In this document: one piece after another, positions 4,872 to 25,908 of the stretch
Position numbering within the stretch: the first letter of the stretch is position 1
How the letters are laid out: every line of letters starts with the position of its first letter
Assembly: GCA_963855085.1 (NCBI GenBank)
Contig: CAWLBR010000001.1
Coordinates: forward strand, 1-55,019
Source of the DNA: Gammaproteobacteria bacterium
GTDB lineage: Bacteria; Pseudomonadota; Gammaproteobacteria; Pseudomonadales; Porticoccaceae
Length of the DNA: 55,019 nt
Reading direction: 5' to 3'
Notes under the pieces: model-generated
Told to the model about the DNA's origin: nothing
The model's database searches: none
The model's input: only the letters and a program-made list of their open reading frames with translations
Position numbers and translations under genes: made by a program

Positions 4872-7457
4872 TTAGCGGCCAAATTGATCCAGCGGCTGTG
4901 GGTGCTGAAAGAGAAAGCCCTGCAAGTAGTCGACACCGATTTTCTTTAGCAGGCGCAGCTGATTTTCATTTTCCACTCCCTCCGCCACCGTGGTGACACC
5001 CATGATATGACCCAGGTGATTGATGGTGCTGACCACGGAATAGTCCACATCGCTGTTTTCCATGGTGTTGATAAAACTCGAATCAATCTTCAGGCAGTCG
5101 ATGGGCAATTCCTTTAGATAGGCAAATGACGACAGCCCACTACCAAAATCATCCAGTGCAATGGACACACCCACCGAGCGCAATGTGGAGATCAGTCGCT
5201 TGGCTTCTTGCAGATGTTTGACCGCTGCAGTCTCGGTGATTTCGAACTGAATATGCTTTGGTGAGATTCCGGTGTCACTAAAACCCCTGAGAATATAGTC
5301 AATGGCATTCTCATCTCCAACAGTGCTGCCGGAGAGGTTTACCGAGAGCAGTGGCAGTGGTGAGCCTTTGGCCTGCAGGCGCTGAAGAAACTTTAATGAA
5401 TGACTGAATACCCACTTATCCAGATCATCGATCAATGAAAAATGTTCGGCGCCGGGAATAAACTCTGAGGGCGGTAAAATAGTGCCGTCACTTTCACGCA
5501 TTCGCACCAGTACCTCATAACATTTAGCCGTTGCGGCAGTGCCATTTAGAGGTACGATCGGCTGGGCAAATAGCGTGAAGCGATCTTCGTCCAGGGCCGA
5601 GACAATTTTCGGCATGCTGGTAGCAAGACTGCGCCGCCGAGCAACCTCTTCATTAAATGACTGGAAGTGAATTTTGTTTCTGCCCTTGTCTCGCGCCGTG
5701 GCGCAGGATGAGCCTGCCGAGATCATCAGGTCTATATCTGAAAGTGCTGTGTCATCAATCAGTATGGCGCCAATACTCGCGCCAATTTTCAACACCTCCC
5801 CTTCCCAGGGAACCCGCAGCTCTTTGAGCTCGGCCAGAATACGCTCTGCCAGCATCATTGCCTTGTCGTAATTGACTCTATGTATCAGCAGGGCAAACTC
5901 GTCATTGCCGATACGCGCGGCAATATCACTGGGCCCTGCAAGTCTAATCAGCAACTGAGCAAATTCTTTTAACAGTTCATCGCCGGCGGTGTGCCCACTG
6001 GTATCGTTGATCACTGAAAAGTTATACAGGTCGATATAGAGCAGCGCGTGCATTGCTCCCTCCTGGCGAGCAATTTCAATGGCTTTTTGAATGCGTTTAG
6101 AGAGTGATGTTCGGTTTGGTAATCCGGTTAAGGAATCATGCATCGACTGCCACTGCAGGCGACTGGAAACCCGGCGCGCTTCACTGAGAGGCCTAAAGAT
6201 AACCAAGCACTTAACAATACGGCCCATGGCATCGCGCAATGGAAACGCGGACACCGAAACACTCACCGGCGCTGCGCCACGCACCTTTAATAACAGCGAC
6301 TGATTGGATTCAACATTGAGGGCCTTGTTTAGGGCATCCTGAACCGGCGTTTCAGCAATGCCTGAGTCTTCATTAGCCAGAGGCATGGCCGCATGAATCT
6401 GTACAGGCTTGGATTTGTCCAATTTAAAACCCAATAGCTGTTCAGCAATCGGGTTCATCTCCAAGACAAAACCTTCGGCATCGACAAGCGCCACGGCGTC
6501 GGCAATATGACGAGAAGTGAGATCGTACAACTCGCCGCGGTTAATTAGCTCCTCGGCCTGCTGACTAACCCGAGTGCAATCGTTACAGAGAATAATCATC
6601 TGACCTTCATCGGTCGCCGAATGAAATAGTTTGATATCCAGATAACGACTTTCACCATGGCATGTGGCGGCCAGTACATAACCCTGATTATGCTGAGTAG
6701 CAAGGCTATTAATATTTTCCACCAGGTCAAGCCCATGCATGTCATCGAGGCCGGGGAATAGTGTGCGCACCGAACTGCCGAGTAATAGTTCACTGCTGTA
6801 GCCAAATAATGTTTCTGCGGCAGTGCTAATCTGAGAGATAAAACCAAATTGATCGGCGGTTATATAAGCGCAGTTTTTATCAACAACGAATGTTTCAGGA
6901 TGATGATCAGTTAGCTCGGTGCTTTCTGTTTCTGGATTAGTTTTTAAACTAGCTTTTGCACCATTTTTTATACCATTTTTTAAACTGGCGTTATCTAGAG
7001 TCCTTTCGTCCGCGAGGGTTTTTTTGTCAGTAGTGTTTTTGGTCGCAGCCTGCAGAGTAAAGCGGATCAGACAGTAGTTATTAGAACCATCATCATAAGC
7101 TGTCATAGACACCCCCAACAGTGAAGAACTGTCGCGGGAAAAAGCCTCAGTGAATTGATCCAACAGACTGTTGTCCGCTGGCCGAGTAAAACGGCTGTTG
7201 CCGGCGGAGCTGATAATTTGATGTAGCTCTCCAGAGAAGCCACTGCCCAATAGCCCTGGAAATAGCGCGTAGAAACGCTTGCCTTGAGACTGACCTGAAG
7301 AGACCTGACAGAAATCCGCGGCTTTGCGGTCGATCATCACCACCCTGAGATTGCGATCCACAACCATCACGCCCCCCTGTAGGCGCGCCGCAATTAGGGC
7401 TCGACTTAACTCGGACCCTGCTCCACCAACTCCTTTCATGTGGAAGATATCGTTCAT
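4872..7457 (-). CDS. PAS-GGDEF(degenerate)-EAL protein, probable c-di-GMP phosphodiesterase
   Basis: PAS-like segments (AETLFGYS, AEQLLG), HDSLTGLPNR, ARIGNDEF, EAL domain YEVLVRM, FEITET, DDFGSG, KIDSSF, AEGVE, QGF. Confidence 0.92.
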   Translation of the reverse strand: MNDIFHMKGVGGAGSELSRALIAARLQGGVMVVDRNLRVVMIDRKAADFCQVSSGQSQGKRFYALFPGLLGSGFSGELHQIISSAGNSRFTRPADNSLLDQFTEAFSRDSSSLLGVSMTAYDDGSNNYCLIRFTLQAATKNTTDKKTLADERTLDNASLKNGIKNGAKASLKTNPETESTELTDHHPETFVVDKNCAYITADQFGFISQISTAAETLFGYSSELLLGSSVRTLFPGLDDMHGLDLVENINSLATQHNQGYVLAATCHGESRYLDIKLFHSATDEGQMIILCNDCTRVSQQAEELINRGELYDLTSRHIADAVALVDAEGFVLEMNPIAEQLLGFKLDKSKPVQIHAAMPLANEDSGIAETPVQDALNKALNVESNQSLLLKVRGAAPVSVSVSAFPLRDAMGRIVKCLVIFRPLSEARRVSSRLQWQSMHDSLTGLPNRTSLSKRIQKAIEIARQEGAMHALLYIDLYNFSVINDTSGHTAGDELLKEFAQLLIRLAGPSDIAARIGNDEFALLIHRVNYDKAMMLAERILAELKELRVPWEGEVLKIGASIGAILIDDTALSDIDLMISAGSSCATARDKGRNKIHFQSFNEEVARRRSLATSMPKIVSALDEDRFTLFAQPIVPLNGTAATAKCYEVLVRMRESDGTILPPSEFIPGAEHFSLIDDLDKWVFSHSLKFLQRLQAKGSPLPLLSVNLSGSTVGDENAIDYILRGFSDTGISPKHIQFEITETAAVKHLQEAKRLISTLRSVGVSIALDDFGSGLSSFAYLKELPIDCLKIDSSFINTMENSDVDYSVVSTINHLGHIMGVTTVAEGVENENQLRLLKKIGVDYLQGFLFQHPQPLDQFGR

Positions 7458-7534
7458 CCTTTGCCCCTTTAATCCTTTGAGCTTTTACCCCTTTATATGG
7501 GGGCTGAATCTACAGCCTTATTGTTACGTCAATC

Positions 7535-18622: not shown

Positions 18623-20056
18623 TTAGAGTATATCGTTCTTGGTCATTTTAAAGGCCGCCAGAGCGCGCTCTCGAGACTCTTTGATATCGATAATCGGCGC
18701 TGGATAGTCAGTGCCAATTTCCACTCCTGCCGCAGCCAGAATCTCCGCCGGCGCCAACCAAGGCGCATGAATATATTTGGCCGGCATCTCCGCCAGCTCG
18801 GGAACATGGCGGCGAATATAGTCACCCTGTTTATCAAATTTTTCACTCTGAGTGATGGGATTGAAAATTCGGAAAAAGGGTGCGGCATCAGCACCGCAAC
18901 CAGCGATCCACTGCCAGCTTGCGCTGTTGGCCGCCAGATCCGCATCCACCAGACAGTCCCAAAACCAGCGCTCGCCACTGTGCCAGTGAATCAGCAAATT
19001 CTTCACCATAAATGAACCCACCACCATGCGCACACGATTGTGCATATACCCGGTGTCGTAGAGTTCACGCATACCAGCATCCACCAGGGGATAACCGGTT
19101 TTACCTTTTTGCCAAGCTTTGAGCTCGACGTCGGTATTGGCAGCCCAAGGGAAAACATTAAAACGCTGCTGCAAGTTATCAGTGGGTAATTTGGGAAAAT
19201 GGTAGAGCAGGTAATAGGAGAACTCACGCCACCCCAGTTCGCTCAAAAACGTATCCAGATTACTTTCGTTGTCGATTAAGGCTGCCGCATCATTGGCTGC
19301 ATACCAAGCTGTGTTGACCGACATCTGACCGAAGTGAAAGTAAGGTGACAGGCGTGAGACATTTTTCTTATTGGGAAAGTTGCGACCTTCGCGATAATCT
19401 TGAATACCGTTAAAGACAAAATCATCTAAGCGATCTCTGGCGCCATCTTCACTGATATTCCAATCACCATGGAGCTTTTTATCCCAGTCGATAGTCGGCA
19501 ATAGGGACAGGTCTTCGACAGTCAAACCCTTGTCGGCCTTAACCAGATCCATAGTCGTGGGGACTGGCAGCGGTTGCCGAGGCGCGACCTTTTGCAAACA
19601 GCCTCTGCGGTAATAGGGGGTGAACACCTTATAAGGGGTGCCATCTTTTTTCAGCACCTGCCAAGGCTCCCAAAGCAGAGAGCCATTAAAGCTCTGCACG
19701 TCGAGTCCCACCTCTTTTAAACTGGTCTTAATATTGGCATCGCGCTCGATGCTTCGCGGCTCGTAACAGCGATTCCAATAAACCGCTTTCGCCGACATGT
19801 CGGCACTTAGATCCGAGAGAATCGTCAGAGCATCGCCGGTGTAAATATTCAGCTTACCGCCGAGACTTTTATCCAGAGACTGCAATGCATGGTGCAACCA
19901 CCAACGGCTGGCGCCACCGAGAGTCCAATCCTGCTCGCTGCTCTCGTCAAAGATAAACACAGGAACAACCACGCCAGATTCACAGGCTGCAGCTAGTGCG
20001 GGATTGTCGGCAAGGCGAAGGTCCTGGCGAAACCAGTAGATAATAGGCTGTGTGAT
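18623..20056 (-). CDS. phrB: Class I CPD photolyase; start uncertain (ATC 20056 or TTG 20125)
   Basis: YWFRQDLRLADN, SRLSPYFHFG, ELGWREF, GKTGYPLVDAGMREL, GYMHNRVRM, FRIFNP. Confidence 0.93.
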   Translation of the reverse strand: MTQPIIYWFRQDLRLADNPALAAACESGVVVPVFIFDESSEQDWTLGGASRWWLHHALQSLDKSLGGKLNIYTGDALTILSDLSADMSAKAVYWNRCYEPRSIERDANIKTSLKEVGLDVQSFNGSLLWEPWQVLKKDGTPYKVFTPYYRRGCLQKVAPRQPLPVPTTMDLVKADKGLTVEDLSLLPTIDWDKKLHGDWNISEDGARDRLDDFVFNGIQDYREGRNFPNKKNVSRLSPYFHFGQMSVNTAWYAANDAAALIDNESNLDTFLSELGWREFSYYLLYHFPKLPTDNLQQRFNVFPWAANTDVELKAWQKGKTGYPLVDAGMRELYDTGYMHNRVRMVVGSFMVKNLLIHWHSGERWFWDCLVDADLAANSASWQWIAGCGADAAPFFRIFNPITQSEKFDKQGDYIRRHVPELAEMPAKYIHAPWLAPAEILAAAGVEIGTDYPAPIIDIKESRERALAAFKMTKNDIL

Positions 20057-20166
20057 AATGTGATCCTTTATATTTATTATTATATTTACGGCTGCTGAGT
20101 AGTGAGTAGATCCTCTAATGGGCAATAAACCCAGACCGCTATTACAGCATATTTAGCGGTTTACTC

Positions 20167-23051: not shown

Positions 23052-24026
23052 TTAATCGAAAAGCATTGACTGGGGCGCGTGGGGGTTTTCCATATCCCGA
23101 GCCAGATCGACAATCTTCTCTGACAACCACTGATGAATAGGCGAGCCCAGCGTTCGCTTGTGCTGTAGTAGCACCAGAGGAACCGTGCCCTCGTGGGGAA
23201 GGTCATCTGGATAGGTTTTAGTAACAATACGATAGAGCTCGCGCTCCATACCAGAACCAAACTTGGCAGATACCATCAAACAATCAGATGCGCAGATGGT
23301 TTCAATCGCTGTCATCAGCTGATTAGTCACCATCGCCTTAGAACGACTGCGCCCCTGCTCTCGCAAGGCGCGATCAAAACGGGCGTCGGTGCGGGCACTT
23401 ACCCGCTTGGCAATCAACAGATAGTACTGCACAAAGGGATATTGAAGAATTTCATCAAGGGTCACGCGGCTCTTTTTCGCCAGAGGATGTCCCTCGCGCA
23501 TCCAGATGGAGGGACTAAAGATCGCCAAGTGACGAGTCGTCACCTCCGCGGTGATCTCTCTTTTTATATCGATGGCGAAATCCAGCACACCCGCCGATAA
23601 CTCTCCAGCTACAGAGTCCGTCTCACTGGAGATCGATAAAATCACGCCTGGGGCATATTTGTTTAGCAGTGCAGTTAACTGGGATGCCAGTGATATAGCA
23701 ATAAATTCAGGGACAGCGATGGTGATCTCACCAACATAGCTAGCGGGGTCAAATTCCCCATCGGTGACCATATCGAGAATGCCATCCAACAACATTGGCA
23801 ACCGCAGCTGCAATTCCTGCGCCTTGGGGGTGGGAATTAATATATTGCCAGTGCGTGTAAATAGCGGATCATCGAGCTGCTGGCGCAGACGCTGCAGTAC
23901 CCGACTCATGGCCGGCTGGGTAATAAATAGCCGCTGTGCCGCGCGGGTAACGCTTTTCTCTTCCAACAGCGCCTGAAGAGCCACCAGTAAATTGAGGTCG
24001 AGGCGGGACAGTTTTTGTAAGTTCAT
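23052..24026 (-). CDS. LysR-family transcriptional regulator (NodD/YidZ-like branch)
   Basis: LDLNLLVALQALLEEKSVTRAAQRLFITQPAMSRVLQRLR...DPLF HTH, FDP linker, C-terminal HQWL. Confidence 0.95.
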   Translation of the reverse strand: MNLQKLSRLDLNLLVALQALLEEKSVTRAAQRLFITQPAMSRVLQRLRQQLDDPLFTRTGNILIPTPKAQELQLRLPMLLDGILDMVTDGEFDPASYVGEITIAVPEFIAISLASQLTALLNKYAPGVILSISSETDSVAGELSAGVLDFAIDIKREITAEVTTRHLAIFSPSIWMREGHPLAKKSRVTLDEILQYPFVQYYLLIAKRVSARTDARFDRALREQGRSRSKAMVTNQLMTAIETICASDCLMVSAKFGSGMERELYRIVTKTYPDDLPHEGTVPLVLLQHKRTLGSPIHQWLSEKIVDLARDMENPHAPQSMLFD

Positions 24027-24043: not shown

Positions 24044-24109
24044 ATTACAATTTGGTATATAAATAATGCGGACAATGCATTTGGATTATGACATAGCTAT
24101 GCGTATATT
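24044..24109 (+). promoter_or_regulatory. LysR-type operator pair and sigma70 promoter, copy 1
   Basis: ATTACAATTTGGTAT (24044-58), ATGC-N7-GCAT (24066-80), TTGGAT (24081-86)-N17-TATATT (24104-09). Confidence 0.75.
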
Positions 24110-24155
24110 GTCACACATAGGGCGACTTGCCCATAAACACCCACGGAGATAGACC

Positions 24156-24278
24156 ATGACACTCGTATACATACTAATCGGATTCACTGGATTAGCGGGT
24201 GCTGCAATTGCGAAAGATGACTTCGCGAACGTTAAAGCACCAAAACTCAAAGCTTCAGATAAGACGCTGACCCACTAA
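24156..24278 (+). CDS. 40-aa small protein with hydrophobic N-terminus (below the ORF-track cut-off)
   Basis: GGAG RBS before the ATG; MTLVYILIGFTGLAGAAIAKDDFANVKAPKLKASDKTLTH; has its own promoter and terminator. Confidence 0.7.
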   Translation: MTLVYILIGFTGLAGAAIAKDDFANVKAPKLKASDKTLTH

Positions 24279-24331
24279 ATCAGCGGCTTCGTACCAAACC
24301 CCTCTTAATCCTTGCTATAGGATTCTTTTAT

Positions 24332-24359
24332 AGGGGCCCTTCTTGGGCCCCTTTTTTTT
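24332..24359 (+). terminator. Rho-independent terminator of unit 1
   Basis: AGGGGCCC-TTCTT-GGGCCCCT followed by a T-run. Confidence 0.92.
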
Positions 24360-24441
24360 ATCTCGAAAAACTCATCTGGCCTATTCGCTAATTTCGCCAG
24401 AAGTAAGGAAAACCCTAAGCTATACCTTATGTACCAATACT

Positions 24442-24507
24442 ATTACAAAATGGTATGACTACGATGCAAAGAATGCATTTGCAGTATGGGGCGCAGATTT
24501 CTAATAT
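24442..24507 (+). promoter_or_regulatory. LysR-type operator pair and sigma70 promoter, copy 2
   Basis: ATTACAAAATGGTAT (24442-56), ATGC-N7-GCAT (24464-78), TTGCAG (24479-84)-N17-TAATAT (24502-07); same spacing as copy 1. Confidence 0.75.
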
Positions 24508-24513
24508 ACCCGT

Positions 24514-24637
24514 ATTGAAGTTGTACAGAGTTTTATAGATTTGCTGATTAGCAGGTCTTACACCGTTTTACCCCTACCCCTTCCTTTGAGACTTTCTCAG
24601 GATTTTTTAGGAGCCTACCTTTAGGCTCCTTTTTTTT
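24514..24637 (+). ncRNA. Candidate Hfq-type small regulatory RNA (~125 nt)
   Basis: Lies between promoter copy 2 and a + strand-only terminator; no credible ORF; hairpin 24537-24558, C-rich segment, hairpin 24582-24602, U-tract, terminator. Confidence 0.7.
24609..24637 (+). terminator. Rho-independent terminator of unit 2
   Basis: AGGAGCCTA-CCTT-TAGGCTCCT followed by a T-run; on the minus strand the stem is followed by A's, so it does not look like the osmC terminator. Confidence 0.9.
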
Positions 24638-24699: not shown

Positions 24700-25119
24700 T
24701 CAGGCCTCTATCACCTCATAGCTATGGCTCATCTCAACACCGGCGGCATTGAGCATAATCGAGGCCGAACAATATTTCTCAGCTGACAGCTCCACGGCCC
24801 TCTTAACCTGTGACTCTTTAAGGTTTGTTCCGCTAACTAGAAACCGCAGATGGATCTTGCTAAACACCGCTGGCACCGCATCAACGCGCTCAGCCTCTAC
24901 CTCAGTACGGCAATCAGTTACCTGCTGACGGCTCTTGGTGAGCATACTCATCACATCAAAGGACGCACAGCCGCCCAAGCCTAATAGCAGCATCTCCATG
25001 GGGCGAACGCCCATATTACGACCACCCTGAGCTTCAGCACCATCCATCACTATACTGTGGCCACTACCGGATTCGCCGAGAAACATTACGCCATCTACCC
25101 ACTTAATTGTTGCCTTCAT
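24700..25119 (-). CDS. OsmC-family protein (YhfA-like)
   Basis: MKATIKW, SGHSIVMDG, RPMEMLLLGLGGC, EKYCSAS; ATG 25119 after GAGG; divergent from crp. Confidence 0.92.
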   Translation of the reverse strand: MKATIKWVDGVMFLGESGSGHSIVMDGAEAQGGRNMGVRPMEMLLLGLGGCASFDVMSMLTKSRQQVTDCRTEVEAERVDAVPAVFSKIHLRFLVSGTNLKESQVKRAVELSAEKYCSASIMLNAAGVEMSHSYEVIEA

Positions 25120-25272: not shown

Positions 25273-25908
25273 TTGGCGCCTGCACCTCTAACACCACATA
25301 TTGAAAATGTGGAAGAGTTTTTATCCCATTGCCACAGACGCCGATACCCGGCGAAAAGCACCATAATCTACGCTGGTGACCAAGGAGATACCCTTTATTA
25401 CATTATTAAGGGTTCGGTCACAGTGATGATTGAAGATGACAGTGACGGCAAAGAGATCATTCTCGCCTACCTTAATCCGGGTGATTTTTTCGGCGAAATG
25501 GGCCTCTTCGACCAGGAGCATCGCAGCGCCTGGATTCGCACCAAAACCGAATGTGAAGTAGGGGAGATCAGCTACGCAAAATTTATGGAGCTGAGCAATA
25601 AACATCCCGCATTTCTCTTCGCTATCAGCAAGCAAGTTGCTCAGCGTCTCAGAGATACCACCCGCAAAGTCAGAGATTTAGCTTTTCTTGATGTGACTGG
25701 CCGAGTGGCGAGAACCTTGCTCGATCTGTGCAAAGAGCCAGATGCCATGACCCACCCAGACGGTATGCAGATTAAGATTACGCGCCAGGAGATCGGACGC
25801 ATAGTTGGCTGCTCAAGAGAGATGGTTGGCCGTGTGCTGAAAGAGCTTGAGACTCAGGGACTGGTTTCCGTGTCGGGCAAAACCATGGTGGTGTTTGGTA
25901 CTCGTTAA
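25273..25908 (+). CDS. crp: cAMP receptor protein (CRP/Vfr)
   Basis: [41 protein letters not shown]; TTG start after GGAG. Confidence 0.97.

Follow-up and report, generated by a model that had tools for sequence, protein, structure and literature searches.

A conserved and probable base-pairing small RNA beside a LysR-type regulator gene in SAR92 bacteria

What does an intrinsic terminator on the + strand terminate, if no + strand gene seems to precede it? In the window (the whole 55,019-nucleotide stretch that was analysed, from a SAR92 bacterium of the Porticoccaceae whose 2.55 Mb assembly we call G000), a preliminary description had reported such an "orphan" terminator at 24609-24637 and had suggested that it ends a trans-acting small RNA with a C-rich seed. 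The terminator is not an orphan: it belongs to one of two paralogous units that are linked to a gene for a LysR-type regulator. We think it quite probable that the second of these units (unit B, 24514-24637) is a conserved non-coding gene under predicted activation by the neighbouring LysR protein, and that its likely product, a small RNA that acts by base pairing, would repress the translation of mRNAs with G-rich ribosome-binding sites. Sequence comparison establishes the anatomy of the two units, an operator that is exclusive to them, a fixed -10 position, a conserved predicted fold around the seed, the lack of a conserved open reading frame (ORF), and the presence of hfq.

The LysR gene (23052-24026, - strand; Pfam domains HTH_1 and LysR_substrate), which encodes the predicted activator, is divergent from the units, and both units lie within the 670-nt gap between it and a convergent gene of the osmC/yhfA family (24700-25119, - strand). 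We place the osmC/yhfA-family gene outside of the module; it is absent from this locus in some relatives. The next gene after it is crp (25273-25908). Each unit contains, in order, two T-N11-A boxes, a -10 hexamer, a C-rich seed, a hairpin, a U-rich linker, and a terminator. In both units, the boxes are 22 nt apart and the -10 hexamer lies 38 nt past the start of the second box.

Unit A, on the + strand, has operator copy 1 (repeat D1, 24044-24080, with boxes at 24044-24058 and 24066-24080), the -10 hexamer TATATT (24104-24109, with a predicted start at about 24116-24117), a 40-amino-acid ORF with a hydrophobic N-terminus that is conserved in the genus (24156-24278), and a 3' part (24293-24359) that is identified as a paralogue of unit B by its fold and by its match to a model built from B. 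This 3' part includes the seed ACCAAACCCCTCTT, a hairpin (24307-24324), and a terminator (24332-24359).

Unit B is the second of the tandem units and is also on the + strand. The features that had been described for 24514-24637 are all present where the preliminary description placed them. Operator copy 2 (24442-24478, with boxes at 24442-24456 and 24464-24478) was recognized both as a repeat and by the operator profile; the second promoter copy that had been described (24442-24488) repeats 24044-24090, and the two are 72% identical. The -10 hexamer TAATAT follows at 24502-24507, and its position is fixed in relatives. The predicted 124-nt RNA (39 homologues of 99-130 nt) then has a 5' hairpin (24537-24558), whose structure is kept while its sequence varies; the C-rich seed CACCGTTTTACCCCTACCCCT (24561-24581, with the core ACCCCTAC at 24570-24577), which is predicted to be single-stranded; a second hairpin (24582-24602), with double-sided changes in two of its six consensus pairs; and the intrinsic terminator with its U tail (24609-24637), where four of the seven consensus pairs have double-sided changes. 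The terminator's stem is AGGAGCCTA/TAGGCTCCT (24609-24630), followed by seven T's (24631-24637).

The operator appears to be specific to these two units. A profile built from 55 distinct operators of relatives gave scores above 8 bits only for copies 1 and 2 across the 2.55-Mb genome. With a covariance model of B, the sole significant matches in G000 were B itself and A (the latter at E = 3e-8), so neither the profile nor the model found any further significant operators or sibling RNAs elsewhere in G000. Given that the operator is limited to two RNA genes and is kept even in genomes of 1.3-1.5 Mb, the regulator probably controls something important. Relative to the predicted start of unit B, the boxes of copy 2 are centred at about -65 and -43, which is the usual spacing for LysR activators. 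The motif TAnnnT lies at box+38 in 38 of 39 B units (four of these were re-registered by 9 nt, as our parser had caught an earlier box) and in 56 of 60 A units; all 60 A units have it within box+34 to box+40. The 5' end of unit B at 24514 is predicted from this -10 spacing. We propose that the LysR protein would bind both operators and activate both units in response to a signal, and that unit B would accumulate as a 124-nt RNA.

The best NCBIfam models for the LysR protein (BsrA, LelA, and YidZ) are all far below their cut-offs, and its best matches in PDB are LysR-type regulators (E about 1e-19). The nearest named records are from SAR92-clade Porticoccaceae, including the cultured strains MOLA455 (98%) and HTCC2207 (97%). 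Both of these cultured relatives carry unit B (loci L236 and L239), so the system is testable.

The 721-nt intergenic region had matches in 35 of 36 genomes of the genus and in none of 24 genomes of other families. We parsed 59 loci from the genus, and 39 of them have a B-type unit. Three of the 20 loci scored as lacking B stop at a contig edge inside the module (G010, G018, and G301); at least three genomes of the genus have a single A unit and have lost B (G011, G030, and G300); and the remaining B-less loci are from two lineages that have A-type units wherever the locus was resolved. More broadly, the B model matched 53 of 121 genomes of the family at E ≤ 0.01, many of them weakly, and inspection of 20 model-matched loci placed B-like RNAs beside the same LysR gene in two further genera. 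Upstream of more distant LysR homologues, a loose parser with no negative control found an operator-plus-terminator unit in 34 of 49 loci. These loci have a LysR gene, an AAT(A/G)CATT box, a short C/U-rich unit, and a terminator, with or without a hydrophobic small ORF (often 25-37 amino acids), and their seeds shift to forms such as CTCCCTC, CCTCTCCC, or ATCCCC. The layout of LysR gene, operator, and C-rich RNA recurs in other families of the order.

The predicted fold of unit B is also conserved. The 124-mer folds better than shuffled sequences (z = -3.2; 2 of 200 shuffles were as good). The C-rich stretch had been described as probably unpaired, and predicted folds of the 39 homologues agree: the mean unpaired probability of the seed is 0.91 (at least 0.8 in 33 of 39, and 0.80 in G000). 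In 38 of 39 B units, a hairpin with 8 bp or more ends immediately 5' of the seed, versus 15.4 expected from shuffles. (We used per-sequence folding for this hairpin; RNAalifold missed it because it was misregistered in the MAFFT alignment.) Across the 36 aligned sequences, double-sided changes affect 6 of the 13 consensus pairs that make up the 3' hairpin and the terminator, and the structure around the seed is kept while the sequence diverges. The preliminary description had set conservation of the seed as a test of its reading, and the C columns of the seed are invariant or nearly so.

Could unit B encode a protein? The preliminary description had stated that the + strand has no ORF between the two terminators. 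There is in fact a 53-codon frame that starts with TTG (24343-24504), but stops or indels interrupt it in close relatives, and we rejected a coding reading of it. Within unit B, no ORF is conserved: the longest frame is a different one from homologue to homologue, and several homologues lack it. Dual-function small RNAs contain a conserved small ORF; its sibling A has one, and unit B does not. Unit B does have several features of an Hfq-type small RNA, namely its own predicted promoter, a U-tailed intrinsic terminator, and a conserved seed that is predicted to be single-stranded, and the genome encodes hfq. A trans-acting small RNA with a C-rich seed is the best reading of unit B, and the sequence data support it, because the seed is conserved and predicted to be single-stranded, the surrounding structure is kept despite sequence divergence, no ORF is conserved, and hfq is encoded. 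In the mechanism that we propose, Hfq would bind the U tail, and the seed ACCCCU would pair with sites of the type (A)GGGGU at G-rich ribosome-binding sites and block the loading of ribosomes.

Alternatively, unit B might be a sponge or decoy, which would soak up another G-rich RNA or an RNA-binding protein with its exposed C-rich strand and would not repress mRNAs. The fold does hold the seed rigidly single-stranded, and no mRNA target stands out or covaries (see below). We consider a decoy improbable, as complementarity to Shine-Dalgarno-like sequences is maintained in the seeds found across the order (CCCCTC, CTCCCTC, and CCTCTCCC), and the U-tailed terminator and hfq fit with pairing to mRNAs.

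We also looked for unit B in RNA data, using metatranscriptome contigs from eight RNA runs, out of 24 listed runs. Level, strand, and ends cannot be read from such contigs. Contigs over unit A are deep in five of the eight runs, and one contig ends at 24117, next to the predicted start of unit A, which is a weak hint. Over unit B, contig depth is about as low as in the flanks in most of the eight runs, and several of the contigs run upstream over the operator and across the predicted start. Contigs from the eight runs do not include a separate unit B transcript; with cover this thin, its absence cannot be concluded, and libraries of this kind may lose RNAs of such a size.

A silent or nearly silent duplicate of A, retained chiefly for its terminator and as a spacer towards the convergent osmC gene, would explain why no contig marks B off as its own transcript. 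Such units are often duplicated in tandem at these loci, and B has been lost in some genomes, as would also fit. But the operator, the -10 hexamer, the seed, and the hairpins of B are kept in 39 genomes while the spacer and the loops diverge. Also, as the preliminary description had it, the terminator has its U tract on the + strand only: because the bases 5' of the stem are T's on the + strand, there is no U tract on the strand of osmC. We give this explanation only a small chance.

Which mRNAs might unit B pair with? A simple script called 2098 genes in G000, and we ranked their leaders by predicted pairing with unit B. The seed had been described as resembling an anti-Shine-Dalgarno sequence; it is not a generic one, because its runs of four C's need GGGG, which is upstream of only 110 of the 2031 scorable genes. 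These genes (about 5%, with GGGG before the start codon) would be the likely target pool, in which TonB-dependent receptors are frequent and to which proteorhodopsin belongs. In G000, GGGG is upstream of 8 of 17 TonB-receptor-like genes versus 102 of 2014 others (odds ratio 16.7, p = 9e-7). Using sets of at most 30 best-scoring receptors, with start codons chosen by script, we found GGGG before 12 of 29 receptors from SAR92, 9 of 30 from five genomes without a close orthologue of the LysR gene, and 5 of 30 from genomes with another seed. We rejected the enrichment as proof of targeting, as it is unspecific; since the control genomes also have GGGG (9/30), the mRNAs of TonB-dependent receptors are a plausible pool but unproven. 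We also note that GGGG in the ribosome-binding region of these receptor genes is frequent across the order (for example, L066 and L067 from G000 and control loci L346-L375).

We followed six of about 70 comparably ranked genes from G000 into relatives. Proteorhodopsin kept its site and the other five candidates lost it. For fur, GGGG was present in 4 of 30; for a dicarboxylate symporter, in 0 of 5; for mreC, in 0 of 5 (and its start in G000 was probably mis-called); for alanine dehydrogenase, in 1 of 4; and for a PAS-GGDEF-EAL gene from the window (4872-7457), in 1 of 16, which was G000 alone. We rejected these five as targets. As separate observations, the leader of the PAS-GGDEF-EAL gene (7458-7495, - strand) has two GGGG sites and the top predicted duplex with B in G000, and the mreC orthologues L173 and L171 appear to start at ATT, a rare start codon.

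The proteorhodopsin leader of G000 contains GTAGGGGT, which is an 8-bp complement of the seed core (24570-24577). Within the genus, 41 of 49 proteorhodopsin leaders have GGGG (we dropped one leader that was cut by a contig end). All 34 genomes that have B and a scored leader carry TAGGGG before proteorhodopsin, as do the three edge-truncated genomes (G010, G018, and G301); of the 12 genomes that were resolved in full or in part and scored as lacking B, none does. G011 and G030 have lost both B and the TA of TAGGGG. In G004, the predicted pairing spans both the site and the start codon (-22.0 kcal/mol), and two of three proteorhodopsin leaders from genus g132 fit as well. The shared presence and loss, the pairing in G004, and the g132 leaders would fit with unit B as a dedicated repressor of proteorhodopsin alone, instead of a regulator of multiple targets. 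But the co-occurrence of B and TAGGGG represents about two events on the LysR tree, and TAGGGG can itself be used as a Shine-Dalgarno sequence. In many genomes the pairing extends over just 6-8 bp, and we found no covariation between B and the proteorhodopsin leader, with cognate pairs no better than swapped pairs (fraction 0.61). Furthermore, genus g138 has B-like RNAs, yet 8 of its 9 proteorhodopsin leaders lack GGGG, and for five B-bearing genomes no proteorhodopsin leader was scored. A dedicated repressor seems very unlikely.

The pairing of the RNA with proteorhodopsin is at the median 5.5th percentile of G000 leaders, and within the top 2% for 7 of 34. Outside of the family, the leader in G167 matches that genome's own, different seed over 7 bp; in G076, which has the same seed, it does not. 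Scanning five genomes for TAGGGGT before ATG gave 87 matches, versus 98 in the reversed control. Our proposal for this target is tentative, and we consider it rather unlikely to hold: the LysR-activated RNA may pair with the GUAGGGGU ribosome-binding site of the proteorhodopsin mRNA and, with its sibling, may jointly lower light-driven proton pumping and a G-rich subset of the receptors for TonB-dependent uptake. If true, a small RNA would control phototrophy by proteorhodopsin in a streamlined marine bacterium that is abundant, and a proteorhodopsin target would add a post-transcriptional layer to marine phototrophy. We found no case of small-RNA control of proteorhodopsin in the literature searched, which covered few subscription journals and no supplements. 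In Vibrio campbellii, proteorhodopsin is controlled by light and RpoS1, according to the available portion of the source (PMC3380642).

The peptide from unit A has 36 homologues, which are "hypothetical" wherever they are named, and it matched no Pfam or NCBIfam family above the cut-off. A small hydrophobic ORF that adjoins a small RNA brings to mind a type I toxin-antitoxin pair, with a toxic 40-amino-acid peptide that is silenced by B. We consider this extremely unlikely: A and B are on the same strand with seeds of the same sense, the peptide's ribosome-binding site has no GGGG, B is retained where the A unit lacks the ORF (nine genomes), and the ORF is likewise retained where B is missing. 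Type I pairs have an RNA that is complementary to the peptide's mRNA and that always occurs with it, and unit B shows neither.

We also note that small hydrophobic ORFs of 25-40 amino acids are found at the same position after LysR homologues in several families (24156-24278 in the window; L038:1287-1367; L048:2577-2657; L052:2543-2617; L054:1274-1357; and L307:1282-1392). The hydrophobic stretch typically ends with A(I/F/L)xxD/E. Nine small ORFs from the distant loci matched no Pfam family.

How does this locus compare to known systems? In Rhizobiales, the LysR gene vtlR (or lsrB) lies beside two tandem sibling small RNAs, AbcR1 and AbcR2; VtlR activates directly via a short operator and has a small protein in its regulon; and the main targets of AbcR1 are transporter mRNAs (available part of PMC7486931). 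The SAR92 locus similarly has a LysR gene beside tandem sibling RNA units. Unlike in the VtlR system, both SAR92 siblings have near-identical operators (in Agrobacterium, VtlR activates abcR1 only), the small ORF is inside sibling A, and the operator is found at this locus only. The SAR92 LysR protein was not recognized as an orthologue of VtlR: it is below the cut-off of every NCBIfam LysR model, and its nearest named records are in SAR92/Porticoccaceae. The RNAs have no sequence or Rfam match to AbcR, and the host is a gammaproteobacterium, not a member of the Rhizobiales. The AbcR RNAs carry their C/U-rich anti-Shine-Dalgarno motifs in loops, whereas the seed of unit B is in a linker between hairpins. 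By analogy, the SAR92 pair would work like VtlR with AbcR1/AbcR2, yet it is not a member of that family.

GcvB is transcribed divergently from the gene for its LysR activator, GcvA, as unit B is from its LysR gene, and represses many uptake mRNAs near the ribosome-binding site. But GcvB is a single gene with a G/U-rich seed, while the SAR92 seed is C-rich, there are two siblings, and there is no Rfam match. SgrS-SgrT (with its regulator SgrR) and VcdRP of Vibrio are dual-function RNAs, and VcdR uses a seed of four C's. Unit A resembles these in having a 5' small ORF and a 3' pairing region; unlike them, unit B has no conserved ORF, the peptide of unit A has no known family, and the regulators are from other families.

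At the gathering score, no Rfam family matched the window or 14 related loci. There were 10 weaker matches up to E = 10. The best of these, suhB/MmgR (RF00519), was a match of the weakest level over the C/U-rich part and the terminator, with 21.9 bits versus the gathering score of 41; we attribute it to composition and the terminator and rejected it.

SAR92 bacteria are abundant coastal oligotrophs (available part of PMC10746254). Small RNAs of SAR92, including unit B, are not described in the literature searched (few subscription journals and no supplements), and the available text of the marine transcriptome papers examined for it does not mention SAR92. Unit B represents a real and conserved family of predicted small RNAs, apparently not described before, with a known regulatory logic.

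Some of the related loci have unusual arrangements. In L016, L020, L024, L026, and L034, the order is swapped, with an ORF-less A-type RNA first and the peptide unit second, and osmC is absent. In L023 (1004-2579), we parsed three units, two of them with the start of a peptide, spanning assembly gaps; this may be an expansion or an assembly artefact. L052 and L057, from another family, have near-identical tandem duplicates of the whole peptide-plus-seed unit. In genus g138, L440, L443, and L445 have an extra copy of operator, peptide, and seed that lies on a different contig, where the retrieved stretch contains no match to LysR. In genus g132 (L435-L438), the stop codon of the peptide ORF abuts the operator of unit B, with no terminator in between, so in that genus a longer transcript may also yield unit B at its 3' end. 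Elsewhere in the window, a 500-amino-acid ORF between purH and purD (18623-20125, - strand) looks by eye like a photolyase or cryptochrome.
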